Source: a virus
Lineage: Duplodnaviria; Caudoviricetes
Virus record (IMG/VR): IMGVR_UViG_3300021403_000008
Location: 1-63,254 of that record
DNA: 63,254 bases
Direction: 5' to 3' (one strand)
Shown: positions 805 to 63,254 of the stretch, piece by piece
Position numbering within the stretch: the stretch's first letter is position 1
Layout: each line of letters starts with the position of its first letter
Position numbers and translations under genes: made by a program
The notes under the pieces: model-generated
The model's database searches: none
Seen by the model: the letters and a program-made list of their open reading frames with translations, nothing else
Told to the model about the DNA's origin: nothing

Positions 805-1028
805 TGGTAAGAGAATGCCAGATGTGTGGGCTAGAGCGGAGCGTCTGTAATCGGTACCGGCGAGATATCGCCTACGGCCGGAGCCTCGTCATCTTCCTAT
901 TCATGGAGGCCGTGTTCGGGTCCGCAATTATGTTCGCGGTAACGTCGCGAGCTTACGCCGCGCTATTCGTATTTGCCGTTGCCGCCTTTACGTCGATTGT
1001 CCTAGTAGTGAGGTCGCCATGGTCCTGA
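804..1028 (+). CDS. Small membrane protein
   Basis: CxxC near N-terminus and two hydrophobic segments; coupled to neighbours. Confidence 0.6.
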   Translation: MVRECQMCGLERSVCNRYRRDIAYGRSLVIFLFMEAVFGSAIMFAVTSRAYAALFVFAVAAFTSIVLVVRSPWS

Positions 1029-3328
1029 CTCTTCCCGCGACGGCTCCTGTCCCGGATATCCCAGCCGATGACCTCCTATGGGAATGGCTCCGGTACGGAT
1101 GGAACTTCCGTGGCTATAGCTCGCGGCCGGTAGCCGAGCAGAACTGGATCATTGACCGCGTCAAGTACGAAATGAATATGATCCTTGGAAAGGAACTGGC
1201 GGACTTCTTTCTATTCACGTCGGACGCTATCCGATGGGCGAAGGACAACGACGTAGCTATCGGACCCGGACGCGGCTCCACGGCCGCTAGCCTAGTCGCC
1301 TATACCACGCGGATTACCGAGGTCAACCCTTACAAGTACCCGTCTATGATCTTTGAGCGCTTCCTCGACGTTACCCGGCATGACCCTCCCGATATCGACG
1401 TGGACTGTTCGGACGAGGAACGCCACAAGGTCTATGAATACCTCGCCTGGAAGTATGGCGCTGAATGCGTCGGCCATATCGGCAACTTCATAAAGTACCG
1501 GGCTAAGAATTCCCTGGCTGACGTAGCGCGAGTCTACAACATTCCGCCATGGGCGAAAGACATCGTTGCTAACCTCGCGATTGAACGGAGCGGTGGAGAT
1601 AGCCGGGCAGACGCGACCCTAGGCGATACCTTTGATATGTTCCCGGCCGCGCAGGAAGTCCTCCGGCAGTTCCCGGACCTCGCGAAGGCGATTCGGCTAG
1701 AGGGTAACTATCGCGGGCTCTCGGTTCACGCCTGCGGGCTTATGGTAGCGAATTCGCCGCTTACCGGAGTATGCGCTATTTACTCCAGGGAAGGCGAGCA
1801 GATACTCAGCCTCGATAAGATTGACGCAGAGTATATCGACGCGCTGAAACTCGACTTCCTAGGGCTCTCGACTATGGGCGTGATTGCCCGGTGCCTCCGG
1901 ATGGCCGGCCTGACGCTAGCCGACCTATATGCCATCCCGGATACGGACCCGTCCGCTATCGAGGTATTCACCAAGGGTGACCTAGTCGGTATCTTCCAGT
2001 TCTCCGGCCGCGCGACCCGGCTAGTGAACCGGGACGTTAAGCCGCTGGACTTCTGGCATATTGTCTGTATCAATGCGCTGAGCCGTCCGGGTCCTCTGTT
2101 CTCCGGCCAGACGGCCGAATTCATCGAGGTACGGCATGGACGTAAGCGGCCGACTTCGCTTCACCCAATCGTAGATGAGATCACCAAGGATACTTACGGG
2201 CAGATGATCTTCCAGGAGCATATCCTTCGGTGCCTCCGGGAGATAGGCGACCTACAGTGGACTAACGTCCATCACATTCGCCGGATTATCGCTAAGAAGG
2301 CCGGGCAGGCAGCCTTCCAGCAATCGTTCGATGCCTTCGCGGAGGGAGCGGATAGGCTCCACGGGATTAAGCGCGAGCTAGCCGAGCAGATATGGCTCCG
2401 TCTCGTAACGTCCGGGACCTATGCGTTCAACGTCGCTCACGCCGTCTCGTATTCGATGCTAGCATTCTGGACGGCCTGGCTCAAGGTTCACTACCCGCTA
2501 GAGTTTTACGCGGCCTCTCTTCAGAAGGCGACGGACGCAGAGGACCAGTTCCGGCTTATGCGGGATGCTCTCTCCCACGGTATTGATATCAAGCCTCCGG
2601 ACCTCCATTGCTCCACGAGGACGTGGATACCAAACCACGTCCTCTCTGATATCCCGGAGCTTCGGCGCGGAGAGCTAATTGCCGGATGGCAGCAGGTGCC
2701 GAAGATCGGCCCGAAGCTAGCCGAGCGCATCGAGCATCACCTTTCCGTCGAGCCCGCGAATCAATGGACAGACCTTACCCGGATTCCCGGTATCGGTGAG
2801 AGTACGGTCGCGAGGCTAGGAGCCTTTGTAACGGCTAAGGACCCGTTCGGGCTCTACCGGACGGAGCGACGGCTTAAGGCTGTTAGCCGCTGGCTCAAGA
2901 CCCAGAAGGCGGTACCCTATCCGACTACGAACGGCGACAAGCTATCAGCCATGGTAGTCGAGGACTCGCGTCAGACCGGAGGCAGATGGAGGCGCGGACC
3001 TCTGGTGGTTTACGCGGGAGTAGTCCGGAGAGTTGAATACAAGGACATCGTAGAGGACGAGCACTCCCGGACGGGCAAGGAATATGAAGAGATACTCAAG
3101 GAAATCAAGAGGCCGGACCTCGTAAAGCGCGCCACCCTTCATATGTACGACACGAGCGATGAGGAAGTCTATGCGAGAATCAATCGGTGGAAATTCCCTG
3201 ACCTAGTCCGTACGCTAGAGACGATCAACATTAATCACGACGTTGTGATAATACTGGGGAACCGTATAGCCGGGTTTGGGACTCCAGTCCTCGTAAACAA
3301 GATATGGGTTGTAGACCCGGAAACGTAG
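1019..3328 (+). CDS. dnaE: DNA polymerase III alpha (DnaE), catalytic/fingers/HhH part lacking PHP
   Basis: GPGRGSTAASLVAY, FERFL, PDIDVD, KLDFLGL, RPGP, YAFNxAHAVSY motifs. Confidence 0.95.
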   Translation: MVLTLPATAPVPDIPADDLLWEWLRYGWNFRGYSSRPVAEQNWIIDRVKYEMNMILGKELADFFLFTSDAIRWAKDNDVAIGPGRGSTAASLVAYTTRITEVNPYKYPSMIFERFLDVTRHDPPDIDVDCSDEERHKVYEYLAWKYGAECVGHIGNFIKYRAKNSLADVARVYNIPPWAKDIVANLAIERSGGDSRADATLGDTFDMFPAAQEVLRQFPDLAKAIRLEGNYRGLSVHACGLMVANSPLTGVCAIYSREGEQILSLDKIDAEYIDALKLDFLGLSTMGVIARCLRMAGLTLADLYAIPDTDPSAIEVFTKGDLVGIFQFSGRATRLVNRDVKPLDFWHIVCINALSRPGPLFSGQTAEFIEVRHGRKRPTSLHPIVDEITKDTYGQMIFQEHILRCLREIGDLQWTNVHHIRRIIAKKAGQAAFQQSFDAFAEGADRLHGIKRELAEQIWLRLVTSGTYAFNVAHAVSYSMLAFWTAWLKVHYPLEFYAASLQKATDAEDQFRLMRDALSHGIDIKPPDLHCSTRTWIPNHVLSDIPELRRGELIAGWQQVPKIGPKLAERIEHHLSVEPANQWTDLTRIPGIGESTVARLGAFVTAKDPFGLYRTERRLKAVSRWLKTQKAVPYPTTNGDKLSAMVVEDSRQTGGRWRRGPLVVYAGVVRRVEYKDIVEDEHSRTGKEYEEILKEIKRPDLVKRATLHMYDTSDEEVYARINRWKFPDLVRTLETININHDVVIILGNRIAGFGTPVLVNKIWVVDPET

Positions 3329-5729: not shown

Positions 5730-6211
5730 TACTCCGGGACCTCCTCAGGGTCATCCGGCGACTCGTCCGGCGCTTCCTCGTCCGGGTCACCGACCGGATC
5801 ATCGTGGTGTTCGTTGCGCCACTCTTCCAGGAAGGCCCGGTAACCGGCGAGACGTTCCCGTACCGAGCCAGGAGCTGGTTTCTCCGACCATCCCCACGGC
5901 TCCGTCGCTAGGTCGGCCTCCGGCTCCGTCTCGTCCGGTCCTTCCTCGTCTAGGACGGCCTCTCCGCTGTCCAGCTCCGCTTGGTCAACGATCTCACCGA
6001 ACCGGACGCGGCGAGCGTGCCGCCGCTCTCGCCTTTCCTCCCTCCGCTCCACTCGCTCTTCATGGCGGGACTCGGCTCCCTCCACTACTTCCTTGAAACT
6101 AACCATTGAGCACCTCCTATCCGTAATCCTACTCCGATGGCGGTTCCGGCTTATCTGGAGGCCGCTTACTCCGGTTAAGGCCGATATACGCACCCAGGAG
6201 CCCGGTAACAC
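5729..6211 (-). CDS. Acidic hypothetical protein (true start probably ~6106)
   Basis: Coupled to lysin by TAATG; AGGAGG RBS near 6113-6118. Confidence 0.55.
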   Translation of the reverse strand: MLPGSWVRISALTGVSGLQISRNRHRSRITDRRCSMVSFKEVVEGAESRHEERVERREERRERRHARRVRFGEIVDQAELDSGEAVLDEEGPDETEPEADLATEPWGWSEKPAPGSVRERLAGYRAFLEEWRNEHHDDPVGDPDEEAPDESPDDPEEVPE

Positions 6212-30028: not shown

Positions 30029-30376
30029 ATGAAGAATCGAGAGTTCATCGAGGCCATCCGCACGACCGGAACCGAAGATGGCATCGTGTGGATCGTCAAT
30101 CCGGGAACGGACGGCGAGGAAGCCGGTTCATGGGCGGTAGGCAAAGTTACCTTCCTCATGGGCGTAACTCCCGAAGACACGATCATCGAGGCGAGCCCGA
30201 CCGGCCCGACAATCCGCATCCCGGAGCTTCTCACCGCACTAGCCGAATTCGCGCCGGACGGAGACGTTCAGGTATACGTTCCCGGATGGGAAGGTCAGCA
30301 ATTCGCCTATTTCGACGTCAGGGACGTTTCCGGCGACCTCGATATCAACCTAGGCGACTGGCGCTGCGGCGGCTAG
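30029..30376 (+). CDS. Hypothetical acidic protein
   Basis: GAGAGGCGAG motif before ATG 30029. Confidence 0.7.
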   Translation: MKNREFIEAIRTTGTEDGIVWIVNPGTDGEEAGSWAVGKVTFLMGVTPEDTIIEASPTGPTIRIPELLTALAEFAPDGDVQVYVPGWEGQQFAYFDVRDVSGDLDINLGDWRCGG

Positions 30377-31009: not shown

Positions 31010-33262
31010 CTACCCTTGGTTTCCTACCCTCTTTTTGCGCTGTGGCTTGCTGTACCATTCCGTAACCGGGCTGCCGTTATACGAGCCCGTTTCCCGGACG
31101 AGCATGCCAGCCTTAGCCATCTCCCTAGCCGTAGCTTTGACATCGTCAATAGGGTGCTGCCGCATACCGTTTGCTATCTTGCCTATCGACTTACGGCCGG
31201 AATCCGGAACGTGCTTAAGAATCAGGTTCTCAAGCCGCTTGTTCTCCGTCCTTGCCTTAACATCCTCAGACGCAATATGCCGGTATCCGTCCATCCGGCC
31301 TTCCTCGCGTACCGTGACTAGTTTCTGCTTCCGTAGAGCGGCTAGACATAGCTCCCGGAGGCTTTCCGACCGTTCCATAGCGTAAGCGGCCAGCCTCCAG
31401 TCTTCCTCCGTTAGCGCCGTCCTCATGGCTAGGACAGCGAGCCCGGCCGCGAACTTCTCCTGTGTATGGAGGAAGTGGCTCCGGAATGGATCGCCTTTGC
31501 CTTTGCGCCCATCTCTCCGAGCCTCGCGAATCTCATCAACGGCCATTCCGCAGACGTCCATTACTTCTAGCGGAACGCCGGCATCATGATCCAGATCATA
31601 GAGCCCGCGAGGAAGAGTCCACTTGATAGGCTCTGGTCTTGGCGGAATTACGTCCGGAGCCCATGGGTCGGTAGCGTCCAGGAACAGCCACCGCTGTGAG
31701 AAACCAGAGCCGTTATCGTGAACGATAATAGCAGAGCGCTCCGGCTGTACTCCGCCAATGAATACGCCACGGTACATAAATGACTTGATGAATATCCGCT
31801 TGGATACGTCGGAGTAGCCGAAGCCAAGCTGCTCCCCTGAATAGAAGTGCCGCATCTGGCTAGACAGCGTCTCGCTTCCTCGTCCCATAATCGCCTGGAG
31901 CGTATCAATCTCATACGCGGTGGGAATCGACGTAAAGGCGTGCTGGACCGTCTGCCCGTCTGCCCTATGGCCGTAATTCTTAACCAGACCTTCGCCGGAG
32001 CCAATCGGAATCCGCTCCGGTACCATGAATGGATTGAACGGCTTGCCATCCGGGCCTTCCGGCTCATCAATGGATATAGCGAGACGTGCGACGCTAGCCG
32101 CTCCACCCTTACCGGCTCCGGAGCTTCCCGTAATGGCTAGGAGCATATTCAGCGAGCCGTAGCCGACGATGATATCAGGGAGCACGAACGTAGGCGGTAC
32201 GCGAGCTACAACGTCCGCTATAACCTCTCCGAGCAGAGCCCACGGGCTTACCATCTGAGCCTGCGCCCATTGGCGAATCGTCGTCAGGTCCTCCCGCGAA
32301 TTCCAGAACCAGTCCTCGCCTTCGCCATCGAGCCTAGGCTCCATAACAGCAATCTCTGATAGCAGCCTTTCCTCTTCTACGGAAGCGACCACATTCTGCC
32401 GCGAGCCGAGCATATCCCGGAGGCCGCGCTCAGTCCACGGGTCGCGCTCATCGTAGGAGCGAAGCTGCCTAAGCAGGAGCGGGAATACGGCTCCGGTAAT
32501 CGCCTCAGCCGAAGCCTCTTTCTCCAGAGCGTTTACGAGGTTCCGGACGGCCGGATGCTGGCTCTGGTTATCGAGGTCCGGATTGTCCGGTCCAGCCGCC
32601 AGAGCCTTATCGAGTAGCTCACCGACATATCCGACTGCGCCGGTTCCGTGGACTCGCTGCTCTCGCTTTGATCGGTAGCTCGCGAGAGCGCGTAGAAGGC
32701 TCAGAGAGCCTTTCGCTACCACTGGCCCGGACACAACCCTATACGGCTTGTTGTTCGGGTGAATCGAGCCTGGCGCTCCGGTAAAGCCCGCAGTCTTGAG
32801 CGTTCCTCCGGGTATGTCTCCCTGGACCGGCCATTCATCTTGCGGAACAACAGCCCGCAAATGGCGGAAGTCTAGGTACAGGTGATACCCGCCCATACGT
32901 CCCGACGATACCGTCAGCGTCTCCGGAAACTCGATGTCCCATTCAAGAAAGGCAATCGGGTCATCAACGTCGAGAGCAACAAGGCCAGTCCTCCATGAAC
33001 AGGCGAATCCGACCTGCCACTTATCCGCCCATAGGTCGATATCGTCAGACGTCTCAATTACCTCAGGGCCATTGAAGTGGAATTCCGAGCCAGTCCCGTC
33101 TCGCCTCTTGCCGCGAGCCGATATCTTTGTGCGGGTCCTTATCCATGGGTGAACCGGGAATCCAGCAGCCGCGTAAATTCGCGCAATATCCCTCTGATTA
33201 GAATCTGCCGGAATGGCGGGAAGGACTAGCTTCCCGTTCCGGCCGTTAGGTAGTATACTCAT
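31010..33262 (-). CDS. Primase-polymerase fused to helicase-like (DUF3987-type) domain
   Basis: LVALDVD, GGYHLY, APGSIHP prim-pol motifs; GSSGAGKG P-loop; SGFSQRWLF. Confidence 0.85.
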   Translation of the reverse strand: MSILPNGRNGKLVLPAIPADSNQRDIARIYAAAGFPVHPWIRTRTKISARGKRRDGTGSEFHFNGPEVIETSDDIDLWADKWQVGFACSWRTGLVALDVDDPIAFLEWDIEFPETLTVSSGRMGGYHLYLDFRHLRAVVPQDEWPVQGDIPGGTLKTAGFTGAPGSIHPNNKPYRVVSGPVVAKGSLSLLRALASYRSKREQRVHGTGAVGYVGELLDKALAAGPDNPDLDNQSQHPAVRNLVNALEKEASAEAITGAVFPLLLRQLRSYDERDPWTERGLRDMLGSRQNVVASVEEERLLSEIAVMEPRLDGEGEDWFWNSREDLTTIRQWAQAQMVSPWALLGEVIADVVARVPPTFVLPDIIVGYGSLNMLLAITGSSGAGKGGAASVARLAISIDEPEGPDGKPFNPFMVPERIPIGSGEGLVKNYGHRADGQTVQHAFTSIPTAYEIDTLQAIMGRGSETLSSQMRHFYSGEQLGFGYSDVSKRIFIKSFMYRGVFIGGVQPERSAIIVHDNGSGFSQRWLFLDATDPWAPDVIPPRPEPIKWTLPRGLYDLDHDAGVPLEVMDVCGMAVDEIREARRDGRKGKGDPFRSHFLHTQEKFAAGLAVLAMRTALTEEDWRLAAYAMERSESLRELCLAALRKQKLVTVREEGRMDGYRHIASEDVKARTENKRLENLILKHVPDSGRKSIGKIANGMRQHPIDDVKATAREMAKAGMLVRETGSYNGSPVTEWYSKPQRKKRVGNQG

Positions 33263-33295
33263 TATGTCGCCTTTCGTAACGGTGAGCGTGACGTG

Positions 33296-33330
33296 AAGGT
33301 CCGGGCCTCTACCGAGTAGGCCCGGACCTT
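33296..33330. promoter_or_regulatory. Inverted repeat in divergent intergenic region
   Basis: AAGGTCCGGGCCT-N9-AGGCCCGGACCTT. Confidence 0.6.
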
Positions 33331-33402
33331 CTACCTTACGTCTTTGTTACTGTGATGTTCTAGTCCCGTTAACCGTAGCTAGCGCGAACGGCGAGCGTCG
33401 GC

Positions 33403-33539
33403 TATACTTGGATTGCGTGCGCGGGCCAGCTCCCGTTAACTCGCCTTTCCGGGAGACTCAGCGCATCGAGGCCGCCAGGCCTGCTAGCCGCCTGGCGGCC
33501 TCACTCATATCTGGCGAAAGGCGAGGCGAAAGGCGAGTC
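33403..33539 (+). promoter_or_regulatory. Promoter and structured leader with anti-GAAAGGCGAG loop
   Basis: TATACT 33403; hairpin 33430-33455 with loop TTAACTCGCCTTTC; two GAAAGGCGAG copies at 33516 and 33528. Confidence 0.6.
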
Positions 33540-34088
33540 ATGGTTACCAAGCATCTCCACGTCCTCGGTATAGACCCTGGCGGCGAGACTGGCTGGTGCT
33601 GGCTCACGGTCGCGCGAGCGGCTATCTTCGGCCCGGAATGGCCGGAGGTAAGCTCGTGGGACTATGGGACCTTTACCGGGCCGGAGCCTGGACAGGCTAT
33701 CGCGATTGCCCGGAAGGCCAGGGAGATACAGGGACTCGACTACCGCACCGGGCCGGCCATCGTCTCGGAGCGCTGGGACGTTGATCCTTCCTTCAAGTCC
33801 ACGGACCCGGAAACGCTGAGCCCTGTCCGCATTAACGCCCAGCTAGAGTTTCTCCATTACGAGAAACGAATGGGCGATGCGACATTGAGCTTCCAGGGCC
33901 GCACCAATACCTTTCATACCTATACGGATGAAAGGCTGAAGCGGCTAGAGCTTTATGTCCCAGGCCCGGACCATATCCGCTCCGCCACTAAGCACGCGCT
34001 AATGACGCTCCGGCGAGCCCGTGAGAAAAGAGAGCTGGCCCTAAAACTGTGGCCGTATCCGCCAAATGGAATGGATACGCCAGAATGA
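33540..34088 (+). CDS. RuvC-like Holliday junction resolvase
   Basis: VLGIDPGGETGW, IVSE, DHIRSATKHAL. Confidence 0.75.
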   Translation: MVTKHLHVLGIDPGGETGWCWLTVARAAIFGPEWPEVSSWDYGTFTGPEPGQAIAIARKAREIQGLDYRTGPAIVSERWDVDPSFKSTDPETLSPVRINAQLEFLHYEKRMGDATLSFQGRTNTFHTYTDERLKRLELYVPGPDHIRSATKHALMTLRRAREKRELALKLWPYPPNGMDTPE

Positions 34089-34711: not shown

Positions 34712-34996
34712 TCCACCGGCCGGAGGCTAGTCCGCCATAGCCTCCGTCCCTCCGGAGCCCGGCAGGCTCACTCCCCAGCTCCACGGGCCTGCCGGGCTCG
34801 CTCCGTCTCTAGGGACCAGTATGCGAGTCTGGATCAGGCGGCTACGCTTCCGGTACCGGAAGGTCCGCGCTCTAGTCGAGGACACCAAACCGATGCCGAA
34901 GGTGAAGCCGTTATCAAACCGTTACTCTGCAGGGAGGAAGGCATGTCTGAAGTCCGGGGTACGCTTGCCGTAGGCGAGCGATCGAAAGGCGAGAGT

Positions 34997-43798: not shown

Positions 43799-43873
43799 AG
43801 AAAGTTTGCGGAATCCTTCGCCAACCCTTCAAATCTAGGGTAAGCTTGCCCTAGGCAAGCGAAAGGCGAGAAA

Positions 43874-44399: not shown

Positions 44400-44484
44400 A
44401 AAGTTTGAAGAAAGTCAGGCCCGGAGGGAACGTCCTCCGGGCTTCTGGCGTTATACTTGACGTAGGCAATCGAGAGGCGAGAAA
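44400..44484 (+). promoter_or_regulatory. Hairpin-promoter-RBS cassette
   Basis: AAAGTTTG; IR 44419-44427/44434-44442; TATACT 44452; GAGAGGCGAG. Confidence 0.75.
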
Positions 44485-44932: not shown

Positions 44933-45015
44933 CAAACTTTCCGGCCCGGTAGGGAGTATCTACCGGGCCGGTGGCGTTATACTTGACGTAGGACGAACGA
45001 GCGAGAGGCGAGGAA
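44933..45015 (+). promoter_or_regulatory. Hairpin-promoter-RBS cassette
   Basis: IR 44941-44952/44960-44971; 21-mer TGGCGTTATACTTGACGTAGG identical to 44446-44466. Confidence 0.75.
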
Positions 45016-45168
45016 ATGTTGAAGAACGGTACTCCGGTTAAGGTCCGTTACGAGAGCGGGACGTTTGACGCGTCGGTTGTGAAGTGGGCTCCGGACCTAG
45101 GCGGGTACGTCCTCCTAGTCGGTGGCGAGCAGTGGATCGCTCCGAAGTCCGACGTGTCGGCCCGTTAA
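45016..45168 (+). CDS. 50 aa hypothetical protein
   Basis: Translated by hand (MLKNGTPVKVRY...); follows GAGAGGCGAG. Confidence 0.65.
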   Translation: MLKNGTPVKVRYESGTFDASVVKWAPDLGGYVLLVGGEQWIAPKSDVSAR

Positions 45169-45609: not shown

Positions 45610-45960
45610 ATGGCTTACTACCGGGCCGGTGGCGATAAGCGGGGAAACGCCGCGAGCCGTAGGGCACGGAAGCAGTGGATGCTCGGAGCCATCGAGGACC
45701 GGACCCTAGGCTGGGCTCCGTTCGGCGGGAACGGCACGACCGTAAATTGCGTGTTCTGCCGGGAGCTTCTAACCTTCGCGACCGTCGAGGCCGACCGGAT
45801 TGTGGCCGGCGGCTCCTACCGGCGTGAGAACGTTCAGCCCGCGTGCCGCGCGTGTAACCTCGCGAGGTCCGACGATGACCTGACCGTGGAGGAAGTCGCG
45901 GAGCGAGTCCTGCTGACTGTGAGCCGTACCGGCCGTAAGACTCCGGCTCTCGCGGTATAA
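45610..45960 (+). CDS. HNH endonuclease-like protein
   Basis: CVFC...EADRI..GGSYRRENVQPACRACN. Confidence 0.75.
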   Translation: MAYYRAGGDKRGNAASRRARKQWMLGAIEDRTLGWAPFGGNGTTVNCVFCRELLTFATVEADRIVAGGSYRRENVQPACRACNLARSDDDLTVEEVAERVLLTVSRTGRKTPALAV

Positions 45961-45981
45961 TTGAGGAAGGCGAAAGGCGAG

Positions 45982-48873: not shown

Positions 48874-48941
48874 AGAGAGCCCGGAGGCTAGTCCTCCGGG
48901 CTCTCTTCGCGTATAATTGAGAGAGGCGAAGAGAGGCGAGG
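48874..48941 (+). promoter_or_regulatory. Hairpin-promoter-RBS cassette
   Basis: IR 48874-48887/48893-48906; TATAAT 48912; GAGAGGCGA twice. Confidence 0.75.
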
Positions 48942-50627: not shown

Positions 50628-50850
50628 CCGACTGGACCGGAGGCCCGGACCCGGAGCTAAGCCGCGAGCTAGCGGAAGAGTTTGAGGACCCGCTACCGGA
50701 GCCGGAGCCCGTTCCCTAGCGGCCGGGAGAGTCCCGCTCCGGTCCTCGCCTACCGGAGCGGGCTCCGGCCGTTAGAAACCATCCTAGCGTGTTCGACTTT
50801 CTGGCACGGTTCCGGTATCCTTGAGGCGAAGGCGAGCGAGAGGCGAGGAA

Positions 50851-55753: not shown

Positions 55754-56707
55754 ATGCCACCGAGGAAAGCGGCCGAAGAGACGGCCGACGCTCCGCGCAC
55801 CGGGACAAAGGCCCGGAGCCGGCAGACCGCGAGGCAGCAGAAGGATCAGCCCGCGCGGATGATGGAGGCTACGGTTGAAATCGAGGAAGTGACCCTAGCT
55901 TCCATCGTTACCTCAACCAACATCCTGATCCAGGGACCTCCCGGAGGCGGTAAGACAGCCCTAGCCGGTGGCGCGCCGAATGCCGTGTTCCTTTCTACCG
56001 AGATAGAGGGAGCTATCTCAGCGGCCATCTCCGGAAGCCGTGCCCGGCTCTGGCCCGCTCCGTCGTGGGAGTACTGTGTGGCCGGTATTCAGAAGGCCGA
56101 AGAGGAACTGGGCCCGGAAGACTGGCTCATCGTAGACTCCGGCACCAACATGCAGGAGATGTACATGAGGTGGATCATGGATTCCCTCGTGGCCTCGTCT
56201 CCGCATCGGGACCTCGACATTCCCTCTCCGGCAGAACACCAGAAATACCAGAACGGCTTCAAACGGTGGTATAACCGGATCATGAAGATGAAGGCGAATA
56301 CCATCTTCATCACCAACTCGATGACCGTCGATGACGATGAAGGGAATCCGCGTACCATTCCCCTCATTCTCGGCAAGAAAGGCGAGATATCCGACTACAT
56401 TTCCGCTCAGGCCGGAGTAGTCCTATACTACTCGGTAAGCCGCGAGAGCCGGGAGAATGAAGCTGTTGGCCCGGACGTTATCCGACGGGCTCTCGCTCAG
56501 CCTTTCCCTCCATGGCTCGCGAAGGACCGCTACAACGCTCTCGGTACGTTCTGGGACGTTCCTCACGGTGACTACACGGCGATGGCGAGGATGATCGACG
56601 CCATCGACAGGGCCAAGAAGGAAATGAAGAATGTCCGAGACTCCCGCGAGCCCGCAGCCCGGCCAGCCGTCCGTCGTGCTGTCCGACCCAGACGAGCAGC
56701 CAGCTGA
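55754..56707 (+). CDS. Sak4-like AAA ATPase recombinase
   Basis: GPPGGGKT, LIVDS, AKDR. Confidence 0.85.
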   Translation: MPPRKAAEETADAPRTGTKARSRQTARQQKDQPARMMEATVEIEEVTLASIVTSTNILIQGPPGGGKTALAGGAPNAVFLSTEIEGAISAAISGSRARLWPAPSWEYCVAGIQKAEEELGPEDWLIVDSGTNMQEMYMRWIMDSLVASSPHRDLDIPSPAEHQKYQNGFKRWYNRIMKMKANTIFITNSMTVDDDEGNPRTIPLILGKKGEISDYISAQAGVVLYYSVSRESRENEAVGPDVIRRALAQPFPPWLAKDRYNALGTFWDVPHGDYTAMARMIDAIDRAKKEMKNVRDSREPAARPAVRRAVRPRRAAS

Positions 56708-59644: not shown

Positions 59645-60543
59645 GTACCTACGGAGATATGCCGCACAGGACCGTCGAGAGGTATGTGGATGAGGCGATG
59701 TTCCCGGCCGTGCCGCTCTCGGAGTACGGAGAGGAAGTCCGGCCGTCCGTCACGGTCATTACGATGACCCCGGACCCGCTCCGGGTCCTCGCGTCTGCCG
59801 CCTCGATGTACAAGGGACTCCCGGTACTCCCAGAAGACATATCCGCCGAAGAGGCGGTGGCCTATCTCGATGCCTTCCGTGGCGGGAAGATCGTTGCGCC
59901 ACTCGAATGGATTCAGATAGCGCTCCTGATCCAGGGAGTCTCCCGCGACTTCACCCATCAGATGGTCCGGCAGAGGACGGCGACATTCGTCCAGGAGTCG
60001 ATGCGGTTCGCGGTAAAGGACAACGCCGCGAACGAGGTGCCGATGCCTCCGTCTATCGCGAGGCTCCCGGACAACAGCGATATCGTCCAGAGGTGGCGGG
60101 AGCACGTAATCAGCACCGGCCAGTTCTATAACTACCTCATTCAGAACGATATCCCGGCAGAGGACGCGCGGAAAGCTCTACTCATCGGAACGGCTACCCG
60201 GCTCCATTACCGGACGGACCTCCGGAACCTCGTGAATACGGCCGGGATGCGGCTGTGCTCTCAAGCCCAGGCCGAATGGAAGCAGGTCTGGCTAGAGATA
60301 GTCGGAGCCATCCTGAATTACGGGCCGGACGAGGAACGCTGGCAGCAGCGGGAGATAGTCTCCCTATTCAAGCCCGTATGCTACCAGACCGGGAAGTGCG
60401 AATTCAATAGCCCCATCGATCGGTGGTGTGTTATCCGGGACCGCGTCAACGCCCACGCGGAACGAGGCGAGCCGCCTACGGTCTGGCTCGATATCAGCCC
60501 GCACGAGCCGCTCCATCCGGCTTCGGCCCGGAGGCCACGATGA
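59641..60543 (+). CDS. thyX: ThyX-like flavin-dependent thymidylate synthase
   Basis: GVSRDFTHQMVRQRTATFVQESMRF, PAEDAR, RLCSQAQAEW. Confidence 0.85.
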   Translation: MSTYGDMPHRTVERYVDEAMFPAVPLSEYGEEVRPSVTVITMTPDPLRVLASAASMYKGLPVLPEDISAEEAVAYLDAFRGGKIVAPLEWIQIALLIQGVSRDFTHQMVRQRTATFVQESMRFAVKDNAANEVPMPPSIARLPDNSDIVQRWREHVISTGQFYNYLIQNDIPAEDARKALLIGTATRLHYRTDLRNLVNTAGMRLCSQAQAEWKQVWLEIVGAILNYGPDEERWQQREIVSLFKPVCYQTGKCEFNSPIDRWCVIRDRVNAHAERGEPPTVWLDISPHEPLHPASARRPR

Positions 60544-62074: not shown

Positions 62075-62294
62075 CCGATGGATTCAGGATAAGGAAGGCC
62101 TGTGGTGGGAGCTAATGCCTGCCGGGCCTTTCCCGGAGCCGCGCGAGCTAACCCCGGAGGAACGGCTAGAAGCCGCGACTAACTACCTGAAGAACCGGCT
62201 CGCGCTCAAGATAGACAAGCTCTACGTCCAGGCCGGTCGGTTCCAGTCCTATGTCGGGACTACTCCCGATGACTTTACGGACGGCCTCCGGTAA
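62064..62294 (+). CDS. Hypothetical protein
   Basis: GGAGG RBS; TAATG overlap with PHP gene. Confidence 0.6.
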   Translation: MDGSRWIQDKEGLWWELMPAGPFPEPRELTPEERLEAATNYLKNRLALKIDKLYVQAGRFQSYVGTTPDDFTDGLR

Positions 62295-63244
62295 TGGGAG
62301 AGCTAGCGCGGCGAGTCCGGTTCGTTAACCTACACGGCCATTCAACATTCTCTTTCGGAGACGGGTACGGACCTCCCTCCGCGCACGTCGCGAGAGCGGC
62401 CGGACTTGGCTATACCGCGCTAGCCCTAACCGAGCACGGTAACGTATCGAGTCACTATCAGCTAGAAGCGGCCGCAGTCAAGGCCGGCATTCAGCCTATC
62501 TTCGGCCTGGAGGCTTATACCGGAGCCGTGGACCTAGAGCACCGCCAGCAATTCAAGTTCCATCTGACTATTCTCGCGGAGACAGCGAATGGATACCAGA
62601 ACCTCAACAAAGTCGTCACCCAGTCCTATAAGGACGCATACTACCACCCTACGGTCAGCGGTAGTTATCTCAGCGCCCACTCTAGCGGGCTTGTCGTTCT
62701 TTCTGGATGTTCCGGGAGCCTTCTGGCTTGTACGCTCCTGGGCGGAAAGGGAATCCCGGAACCGGATACCGGAGTCTACAACTGGAACGGAGCGCTAGAA
62801 GTAGTCGAGAGGTTCAAGTCCCATTTCGGTGATAGGTACTTCCTAGAAGTCCAGCCTTTCTGGGAGCTGGAGCGCTCGTGCTTTATGAATCCGGCCTATG
62901 AGGAACTGAGCCGGATGACCGGAGTGCCGCTAGTCGTTACCCACGATATCCATTACCCGCTCCCGGAGGACGCAGAGATGCAAGCTATTCTCCACGCGGT
63001 CCATCGCGGGAAGGCGAGTATTGATGACGCGCTCCGGGAATGGAATTACGAGGTGGCGATGACCTTCCCGGACGGAGACGCTATACTCGGAGAGAAGCTA
63101 ATGAAGACCGGCCTTAGCCGGGAAGCCTCGTGGGAGGCTATCCTGACTACGGAGCGGATAGCCGGAATGTGTAAGGTGAAGCTACCGAAGGCCAAACGTC
63201 TCCGGTACCCAATATCCCAGCAGGACATTCAGCCGTGGAGCTAG
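62294..63244 (+). CDS. dnaE: DnaE N-terminal PHP domain as a separate gene
   Basis: LHGHSTFSFGDG, ALTEHGN, GLEAY, HLTILA...GYQNL, LSGC, THDIHY. Confidence 0.92.
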   Translation: MGELARRVRFVNLHGHSTFSFGDGYGPPSAHVARAAGLGYTALALTEHGNVSSHYQLEAAAVKAGIQPIFGLEAYTGAVDLEHRQQFKFHLTILAETANGYQNLNKVVTQSYKDAYYHPTVSGSYLSAHSSGLVVLSGCSGSLLACTLLGGKGIPEPDTGVYNWNGALEVVERFKSHFGDRYFLEVQPFWELERSCFMNPAYEELSRMTGVPLVVTHDIHYPLPEDAEMQAILHAVHRGKASIDDALREWNYEVAMTFPDGDAILGEKLMKTGLSREASWEAILTTERIAGMCKVKLPKAKRLRYPISQQDIQPWS

Positions 63245-63254
63245 CATGATGTCA
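62652..63254. repeat. Terminal overlap copy B
   Basis: Direct repeat of 1-603. Confidence 0.95.

Follow-up and report, generated by a model that had tools for sequence, protein, structure and literature searches.

A conserved leader of a phage resolvase gene presents a hairpin loop complementary to a start-associated motif

Cluster K mycobacteriophages carry start-associated sequences (SAS). According to Pope et al. (2011, PMC3203893), the SAS is a 13-bp asymmetric motif (GGGATAGGAGCCC) present in 11-19 copies, which is found in the right (non-structural) arm only, in a single orientation and 3-7 bp ahead of starts, and which contains, and extends past, the Shine-Dalgarno core; these authors do not decide between an RNA and a protein as the molecule that would bind the motif. 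In many cases a promoter-bearing element, ESAS, stands ahead of the SAS (PMC11373665), and the role of the SAS is called unknown in reports of 2011, 2024 and 2025 (PMC3203893, PMC11373665, PMC12699233). The present analysis concerns a second, unrelated motif system with the anatomy of the SAS, found in IMG/VR virus record IMGVR_UViG_3300021403_000008, the whole 63,254 bases of which (hereafter the window) represent a soil phage, a ~62.65 kb actinophage-like siphovirus. In this genome, the leader (~33415-33539, + strand) of a RuvC-fold Holliday-junction resolvase gene presents a hairpin loop whose core is the exact reverse complement of the motif, and which could be its concrete antisense partner.

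Other known systems resemble this leader in part. The c4 antisense RNA exposes in its loops sequences that are complementary to the downstream ribosome-binding region of the same transcript. RsaE/RoxS-type small RNAs have pyrimidine-rich apical loops that seed on the purine-rich ribosome-binding sites of a regulon, but they are host RNAs with several UCCC loops, their own terminators and ordinary Shine-Dalgarno targets. In early transcripts of T4 gene 49 (endonuclease VII), a sequence upstream sequesters the ribosome-binding site, by which the junction nuclease is kept low; the T4 hairpin is local and gene-specific, whereas the pairing predicted in the window spans a 35-nucleotide (nt) hairpin and involves a shared motif. 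The leader resembles c4, a small structured RNA which is encoded at the head of an operon, is complementary to a ribosome-binding site of the same transcript and represses downstream genes; in the window, where co-transcription is predicted, positions 33440-33449 are complementary to 33516-33525 and to 33528-33537, past the same -10 box. It differs from c4 in that Rfam gives no c4 match for the leader, and in that the target of c4 is one operon, as opposed to a motif of ~18 genes. In P1/P7, c4 is part of the immI operon, c4-icd-ant, with a C4 binding site (PMC8198154). The leader described here is a variant that joins c4-type leader antisense RNAs and SAS-type start motifs.

The motif, GAAAGGCGAG, is the most repeated 10-mer of the genome: the whole window holds 15 exact copies versus 0.25 expected (0 of 100 shuffles reach 15), and 37 copies with at most one mismatch versus 6.7 expected (largest shuffle, 14). 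On the + strand, 11 of the 13 exact copies are followed 0-4 nt downstream by a start codon (ATG/GTG) with an open reading frame (ORF) of at least 30 amino acids; the other two are the tandem partner at 33516 and a copy at 56377, which lies inside a gene and has no start. Seven one-mismatch copies also stand ahead of starts, and an ORF is present at 18 of the 19 sites tested, which gives 18 genes whose start lies 0-7 nt past a motif site; 17 of these belong to the rightward arm, from 33.5 kb on, and one is a + strand gene at 30029. Before these ~18 genes, the form (A)AAGGCGA(G/A) replaces the ordinary AGGAGG Shine-Dalgarno sequence; left-arm (structural) genes have ordinary AGGAGG-type ribosome-binding sites. 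Since relatives keep GAAAGG 7-10 nt ahead of the start of the divergent primase gene, this part of the motif is probably its Shine-Dalgarno core; it is presumably complementary to the CCUUUC found in the 3' tail of actinobacterial 16S rRNA, and CGAG would be an extension without an rRNA partner. As for the minus strand, the copy at 6028 is in the sense direction for the leftward arm and lies inside an ORF, and the copy at 33440-33449 is the sole exact one that is antisense to local transcription, within a 277-nt gap between divergent genes.

This inverted copy lies in the resolvase leader, where an earlier note on this DNA had described, from the letters alone, a TATACT box, a stem with a 14-nt loop, tandem motif copies and a 13-bp GC hairpin; all of these coordinates are correct. 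In brief, the TATACT box (33403..33408, + strand), of the TAnnnT type, is the putative -10 box of a rightward promoter, from which transcription would start near 33415. It is followed by a two-tier hairpin forming the 5' domain (hairpin 1, 33417..33466), which consists of an outer stem (~33417-33425 with 33457-33466), an inner stem CTCCCG/CGGGAG (33430-33435 with 33450-33455) and an apical 14-nt loop TTAACTCGCCTTTC (33436..33449). The last 10 nt of this loop (CTCGCCTTTC, 33440-33449), hereafter the anti-motif, are the exact reverse complement of GAAAGGCGAG, as had been proposed for the loop core. Then come the 13-bp GC hairpin, termed P2 (33468..33502, i.e. 33468-33480 with 33490-33502 and a 9-nt loop at 33481-33489), a distal motif copy (33516..33525), which is the predicted partner of the loop, and a proximal copy (33528..33537), which is the ribosome-binding site of the resolvase gene and is followed by tc and by the ATG at 33540. 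The motif is therefore present twice in tandem in this leader as well as before many other genes, in agreement with the note, but the second copy, which the note reads as a spare, does not set the resolvase leader apart: two or three AGGCGA(G) copies are also found in several other leaders (34984, 45972, 48931, 50838). No Rfam family matches 33400-33540 at E-values up to 10 in a search of 33000-33800, the four sub-threshold matches (33203-33335) being located outside the leader. A small minus-strand ORF after the inverted copy and a leftward promoter before it were considered and rejected, as no start codon follows and no TAnnnT box lies just ahead on the minus strand, respectively.

At the DNA level, the region matched none of 50,697 phage records, and a viral contig scan with the resolvase as single protein gave no relatives. 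A viral-contig scan for the motif plus a start codon yielded a relative of 62.8 kb (G001), whose resolvase is 56% identical and whose 17 exact copies of GAAAGGCGAG include 15 on the resolvase-arm strand. Furthermore, an alignment-based scan of metagenome contigs yielded 173 resolvase relatives, of which 80 were kept; 300 nt upstream were read for 32 loci (designated L and a number; 43-64% identity), and a -10 box was assignable in 20 of these. The 20 leaders correspond to 17 distinct ones after merging L111, L114 and L134 with near-identical partners. Exact duplicates (L125, L127, L130, L132, L133, L142, L143) and L144, which is too short, were left out, and the set excludes L135, L137-L140, L145 and L146-L189, the last range consisting of distant relatives.

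The order -10 box, 5' hairpin domain, P2, ribosome-binding site and start codon is shared by all 20 leaders. The TAnnnT box, usually with GGG ahead, is equidistant from the hairpin base in 20/20; ~6 nt past the box, a G/C-rich start (GCG...) forms the outer stem of a two-tier hairpin, a form found in most of the 20; an inner stem of 4-8 bp surrounds a pyrimidine-rich loop of 8-26 nt, and a short linker leads to P2, which has 12-16 bp in 20/20 and is followed by 10-45 nt bearing the ribosome-binding site. The inner stems differ by lineage (CUCCCG/CGGGAG, CCCUG/CAGGG, CUGGAG/CUCCGG, CCCAG/CUGGG, CCUGG/CCAGG, GCCGG/CCGGC, CCAG/CUGG and others). As defined by hand, hairpin 1 is an exact substring of the leader and fully paired in 14 of the 17 distinct leaders; the hairpin strings of L110, L116 and L141 are not exact leader substrings, and the L141 stem is not fully paired. 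Stem covariation was analysed with RNAalifold on the seven leaders that are well aligned by MAFFT (24 pairs): 97.6% of the cells are paired, versus 22-48% in slid controls, with 10 compensatory pairs (reached by 1 of 500 shuffles) and a covariation score reached by 0 of 500. In this sub-group, P2 shows compensatory changes in 7 of its 14 pairs. A covariance model built on the same seven leaders (R1) recovered its own sub-group and a few weak matches and did not recover the window leader at E-values up to 1; the leaders were parsed by scripts because this model is too narrow. At closer range, four near-identical soil contigs (95-99% identity, two studies) keep hairpin 1 with its loop, P2 and the two motif copies without change. 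Indeed, within 33352-33539 one run differs by a single spacer base (33526) and another by four linker changes, these being the only differences, and the adjacent 33284-33351 shows ~20 differences (substitutions and indels) in two of the four runs. Taken together, these comparisons indicate that the leader feature is real, conserved and selected. The P2 loops of L117-L122 (e.g. L118 2404-2503) have a conserved 3' half, GTCACGT(A/G)(C/T), and are otherwise variable; this half could be a contact site for a protein or an RNA.

The anti-motif is the part of the loop that recurs. Hairpin-1 loops contain CGCC, within (C/U)UCGCCU(U), in 12 of the 17 leaders, and CGCU, which pairs with GGCG via G-U, in two; in the remaining three (L110, L116 and L113), the hairpin-1 loop is without CGCC, and CUUCGCCU is present instead as the 8-nt loop of P2. 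The anti-motif is in both loops in L115, and the P2 loop of L124 also carries the anti-motif TCGCCU. The hexamer TCGCCT occurs 17 times in the 1,997 nt of the leaders (8.5/kb) and 91 times in the 130,486 nt that remain of these loci (0.70/kb), i.e. a 12-fold enrichment, and it is present in 15 of the 17 leaders, always in the hairpin-1 domain or P2. An inverted copy arising by chance, or as a functionless relic of the duplication of a promoter-leader cassette, would have in its favour that stray copies are possible for the most repeated 10-mer of a genome and that the finding was selected post hoc; however, the expected number of exact copies is only ~2e-6 per base and strand, or ~3e-4 per 125-nt leader (itself a post hoc arithmetic), the feature is kept in relatives whose resolvases are only 45-64% identical, and it is invariant in the near-identical contigs, where adjacent DNA varies. 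This origin is very improbable.

A purely structural role would assign hairpin 1 and P2 to mRNA stability, processing (e.g. by RNase III) or pausing, and would leave the complementarity of the loop without a pairing role. 5'-terminal hairpins can act as mRNA stabilisers, hairpin 1 starts at the predicted +1 in most leaders, and long GC hairpins stand ahead of several other genes in relatives. Stem covariation also fits this reading, as it indicates that structure is selected and says nothing of loop pairing. Across lineages, however, conservation of the loop sequence exceeds that of the stems, and neither the enrichment of TCGCCT nor the joint change of exact 10- and 11-nt complements between the window and L112 (see below) would be expected, so that a structural role by itself is rather unlikely. 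The motif could also be a site on DNA, such as an operator or a stoperator-like site of a phage protein, the inverted copy being one more site near divergent promoters. Indeed, an asymmetric motif in one orientation along a transcribed arm resembles the stoperators of mycobacteriophage L5, mentioned by Pope et al. (2011, PMC3203893), a TAnnnT box lies 16-38 nt upstream at 9 of the 18 motif sites, and a motif-binding protein that reads either orientation would explain the complementarity of the loop as well. On the other hand, the tight spacing of 0-4 nt to start codons suggests a translational role, stems of covarying sequence surround the inverted copy in every case, a frame that binding to a duplex does not need, and L123 and L126 pair via G-U only (CGCU versus GGCG), which for a DNA site would be a change in the core. 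A DNA-level function is accordingly improbable.

Folding of the leader gave two results, depending on the length considered. The 5' domain alone folds into the hairpin described in the earlier note, with CUCGCC exposed (-19.4 kcal/mol). In the ensemble of the full leader (33415-33560), the favoured state is instead a long-range helix between the anti-motif and the distal motif copy, with 9.96 of 10 expected base pairs, and the expected pairing of the hairpin 1 stem falls to 0.0; the minimum free energy is -68.1 kcal/mol, compared with -58.8 kcal/mol when hairpin 1 is forced closed with its loop free. The fold proposed in the note is thus that of the 5' domain, not that of the complete leader. 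The proximal motif is mostly paired in the ensemble (GG, CGAG), the last two bases of the AUG start codon are mostly paired too, and with a shorter 3' end the partner of the loop becomes the proximal copy. Over the genome, the median pairing energy of the loop is -17.2 kcal/mol with 18 motif sites, -7.5 kcal/mol with 27 left-arm sites and -5.6 kcal/mol with 21 right-arm sites without the motif, which shows that the motif class is sharply separated by loop pairing energy, although by construction.

The earlier note had proposed that the loop acts either in cis, on the resolvase gene, or in trans, on a whole class of genes. Both proposals stand in part. For the six lineages with an AGGCGA-type resolvase site, each hairpin was compared with its own last 19 nt, and swaps were as good in 19 of 720 permutations (energy) or 18 of 720 (longest Watson-Crick run). 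This result is driven by two pairs, those of the window (CTCGCCTTTC with GAAAGGCGAG) and of L112 (CTCGCCTCTCC with GGAGAGGCGAG, 11/11 positions), between which there is a true compensatory exchange of A-U to G-C. The L105 pair (CTCGCCTGCC with GGAAGGCGAG, 9/10) has one compensatory and one disruptive change, and in L124 an ATCGCCT loop matches the locus's own AGGCGAT, which runs into the AUG. The cis action is further favoured by the ensemble pairing with the distal copy. As for the class of genes, hairpin-1 loops matched other motif sites of the same locus with at most 13 of 300 shuffles as good in 11 of 15 testable loci, and L105 gave 27 of 300, i.e. 12 of 15 are below 30 of 300; the three loci that fail are L110, L116 and L113, whose P2 loops score 14, 13 and 61 of 300. 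Furthermore, the anti-motif is kept where the resolvase site is not of the motif type. This is the case in the L117-L123 sub-group, whose resolvase site is GGGGAGGG-like and whose loops are UUCGCCUU or CUCGCCUU: the gene after the resolvase has AAGGCGA(A/G) before its ATG, and the loop matches this site over 8-10 bp, as in L123, where UUUCGCUUUC pairs with GAAGGCGAAA at 10/10 positions, one being a G-U. Since relatives keep the anti-motif where the resolvase site differs in type, the same loop probably also pairs with other motif sites.

It could still be argued that the loop acts in cis only, as a private anti-Shine-Dalgarno sequence of the resolvase leader whose likeness to the motif merely follows from the type of the resolvase site. 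The lineage-specific matches of the window, L112, L105 and L124, the sub-group permutations and the strong preference of the ensemble for intramolecular pairing all agree with such a restriction, and targets located 66-78 nt away on the same RNA should win kinetically. However, in 12 of the 17 leaders the loop is no better than shuffles against its own site, and all but three of these 12 keep the (U/C)UCGCCUU type; the L117-L123 loops match the site of the next gene rather than that of the resolvase; and the corresponding loop of phage Anaya, described below, adjoins no start-associated sequence. A function in cis only is unlikely, although less so than a structural role by itself. As judged by sequence, the trait conserved throughout the family is complementarity to the shared motif, with lineage-specific cis matches where the resolvase uses the motif.

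Several results weigh against pairing of the loop with the motif, or against its generality. When tested against the ribosome-binding tail of the same leader with 300 shuffled loops, only 5 of the 17 loops beat their shuffles (as good: window 0, L124 6, L105 9, L131 9, L112 19), and swapping of loops among all leaders gave p = 0.32, i.e. across the family a loop does not covary with its own site. The outcome in relatives that the earlier note had named as refuting, a loop that is not conserved or does not co-vary, did not arise: conservation of the loop was found, as was covariation in the sub-group, although covariation with the own site across the family was not; the note's idea of loop/motif pairing, in cis or in trans, keeps the conserved hairpin, the anti-motif and the covarying stems of the 17 leaders and lacks this family-wide signal. 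At single positions, L105 has one G-A mismatch, and L117 provides a counter-example, its loop having CUCGCC for GGCGAA in the next gene. In L110, L116 and L113, hairpin 1 does not carry the anti-motif in its loop; L120, L128, L129/L130 and L136 have no such leader immediately 5' of the resolvase; and in L106/L133, which were left out, no clear -10 box or architecture was assignable. L120 has a related two-hairpin element 240 nt upstream, with a loop without CGCC, and its locus is without AGGCGA on that strand. The window leader as a whole folds with a weak z-score of -1.81, 11 of 200 shuffles being as good. Moreover, a generic sigma-70 scan found no two-hexamer promoter at the leader, the promoter being assigned from the conserved -10 box, and a search of sequencing runs with the leader listed no RNA run as holding the sequence. 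P2 is followed by ACTCATATCT and has no T-tract, and 0 terminator-like sites were found in 33200-33620; because P2 is without a T-tract, a discrete small RNA is not predicted.

On balance, RNA-RNA pairing of the leader loop with the start motif, acting in cis at this locus and probably class-wide, has in our view about an even chance of being correct. The leader (~33415-33539) would then be a conserved structured RNA, with a hairpin from ~+1, P2 and the ribosome-binding site. Hairpin 1 would form first and expose the anti-motif seed in its apical loop; once the motif is transcribed, a long-range helix of 10-11 bp across P2 would replace hairpin 1 and bury the ribosome-binding site and the AUG of the resolvase, the outcome being limited translation of a potentially harmful junction-cutting nuclease. 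The same seed, carried by the mRNA leader or by a shorter product ending after P2, could pair with other motif sites, reached on the same long transcript or in trans, and so constitute a class-specific riboregulator (repressor or tuner). The sequence features, their conservation, the covariation of the stems and the statistics of complementarity are observations; use of the -10 box as a promoter, in vivo pairing, repression and an action in trans are inferred. More tentatively, the motif may be a private Shine-Dalgarno extension that marks a temporal class of genes, which one RNA loop (an 'anti-SAS' riboregulator), binding the ribosome-binding sites or 5' ends of all mRNAs so marked, would switch off or tune while sparing host and late phage messages; this broader proposal is possible rather than probable.

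The SAS system of Cluster K was inspected for a comparable element. Phage Anaya has 16 forward SAS sites and one reverse site, the latter in a 385-nt gap between gp96 and gp97 (L190 31850-31905; record ~59,849-59,904), where it forms a 10-nt apical loop on the transcribed strand. The hairpin, GCGCGG-CCUCCUAUCC-CCGCGC atop a 10-bp outer stem, has a z-score of -3.99 (0 of 200 shuffles as good), and its region is conserved in 138 Cluster K records. An alignment of eight Cluster K phages also predicts the hairpin, with three compensatory pairs in the outer stem and the loop CCTCCTATCC in 5 of 8; the loops of Ekdilam and Amgine are shortened and that of Keshu differs. Covariation of the loop with the SAS was looked for in Ekdilam, which keeps the consensus SAS and has a one-base deletion in the loop (9 bp with a bulge), but this does not provide a clean test. 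No Rfam family covers the hairpin, and some annotators call an ORF across its region. The window motif is SAS-like in that it too occurs in more than 10 copies, far above chance, close to starts, in the rightward arm and in a single orientation, and in that one antisense copy is not at a gene start but in a hairpin loop (33440-33449 in the window; 1 of 17 sites in Anaya). It differs in sequence, GAAAGGCGAG being unrelated to GGGATAGGAGCCC, and the phages are unrelated at the DNA level; the two motifs are of the same kind and of different families. Furthermore, the reverse copy of the window lies in the leader of a motif gene, where an action in cis is possible, whereas that of Anaya is ~185 nt before a gene without SAS. 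Since both Anaya and the window show it, two unrelated motif systems share a design of many start-proximal sense copies and one antisense copy in a loop.

To the SAS anatomy, the window adds a concrete candidate antisense partner for the motif, and a partner loop turns the 'function unknown' attached to the SAS since 2011 into a testable mechanism. A literature search did not meet the term 'antisense' in this sense for the mycobacteriophage SAS, an earlier mention being possible. If the proposed mechanism is true, the purpose of start-associated sequences would be explained, and these phages would provide a compact post-transcriptional control of a gene class by means of a private ribosome-binding code, which could serve as a design for orthogonal translational control. 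A bench test is within reach, since the phages of Cluster K are engineerable and propagate on the laboratory strain Mycobacterium smegmatis mc2 155.

A second hairpin with an anti-motif loop is present in the window upstream of the helicase gene (GTG 50851). This intergenic hairpin (50716..50775, + strand) has an 8-nt loop, CCTCGCCT (50744-50751), identical to the hairpin 1 loop of L105 and L112. Extended by the T ahead of it, the loop gives TCCTCGCCT (50743-50751), whose 9 nt are exactly complementary to AGGCGAGGA of the helicase ribosome-binding site. The right arm has 14 occurrences of TCGCCT on its + strand, and the two that are intergenic (33441, 50746) are the only ones in hairpin loops. 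The loop at 50744 is not conserved in G001, where the region is non-homologous, a further point against the generality of the system, and the membership of this hairpin in it is therefore uncertain.

Recurring promoter-leader cassettes were also observed, in which a TAnnnT box is followed after 6-7 nt by (T)AGGCGA or AGGCAA and, a few nt further on, by the 10-nt motif and a start codon (34960-34993, 43836-43870, 44452-44481, 44978-45012, 45956-45981, 48912-48940 and 50816-50847). The first AGGCGA copy of these cassettes would be at or near the 5' end of the RNA; L141 has AGGCGA at this 5' position, and its ribosome-binding site itself is an ordinary AGGAGG. Another sequence, CCCGTTAAC, which contains the palindrome GTTAAC, has exactly two copies in the window (33365-33373 and 33432-33440), 67 nt apart in the same intergenic region, the second of which overlaps the 5' arm and the loop of hairpin 1; a one-mismatch copy abuts the motif at 45161. 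It was rejected as a second motif, as the two exact copies and the 19 copies with at most one mismatch (11.8 expected) are not significant.

The gene that follows the leader (33540..34088, + strand; phrog_1981) is the first of the rightward replication arm and encodes a protein of 182 amino acids. It has no Pfam match and no PDB match by sequence search. An AlphaFold2 model based on an alignment of 17 homologues has a predicted local distance difference test (pLDDT) score of 89.4, and in a Foldseek search of this model against the PDB the top 14 matches (E < 0.001; best E 8.5e-6) are RuvC or viral resolvases, namely bacterial RuvC, lactococcal phage RuvC and fowlpox resolvase, with template modelling (TM) scores of 0.50-0.65 (target length) and 0.46-0.56 (query length). 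The predicted structure supports the label of RNase H-like RuvC-fold resolvase, which holds. An N-terminal extension of the resolvase from the TTG at 33408, which would make the leader coding, was rejected, because M1 is invariant in the 17 homologues and the RuvC fold starts at residue 5.

The last 603 bases of the record (62652-63254) repeat the first 603 (1-603) with 13 mismatches, so that the genome unit is ~62,651 bp; this overlap could be a terminal repeat or, if the genome is circularly permuted, the outcome of assembly from a mixed population. The leftward arm (~3.6-33.3 kb, minus strand) encodes a tape measure protein, a major head protein, a portal protein and a large terminase, with a Prim-Pol primase at its head. 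The rightward, replication arm (+ strand) extends from 33.5 kb to the end and continues into the first 3.6 kb; its genes include the RuvC-fold resolvase, a superinfection-exclusion-like protein, a helicase, an exonuclease, a Sak4-like annealing protein and a DNA polymerase. The latter consists of two ORFs (62294-63244 and 1019-3328) that match consecutive parts of phrog_405 (41-330 and 327-889), with small ORFs (595-804 and 804-1028) between them, and a split polymerase or an inserted element is possible. The 857 records matched by the portal protein are all actinobacteriophages (857/857, identity at most 42%). Since its portal protein matches actinobacteriophages only, the host of the phage is probably an actinobacterium, although this is a weak inference.

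The divergent neighbour of the resolvase, at the head of the leftward arm, is a Prim-Pol-type primase gene (31010..33262, minus strand; 750 amino acids; Pfam PF09250 Prim-Pol, E 2.6e-8). Its ribosome-binding site, GAAAGGCGAC (33266..33275, minus strand), is a 9/10 copy of the motif located 3 nt before the ATG. Between the start of the primase gene and the -10 box of the rightward promoter lies a 13-bp GC hairpin (33295-33331), and relatives have one too. Two of the near-identical soil contigs differ from it at ~13 places (7 substitutions plus indels), whereas the leader is invariant. The loop of this primase-side hairpin reads, on the + strand, TTCGCC in L110, ATCGCCTT in L112 and CTCGCC in L115, which corresponds to the sense motif on the strand of the primase mRNA.

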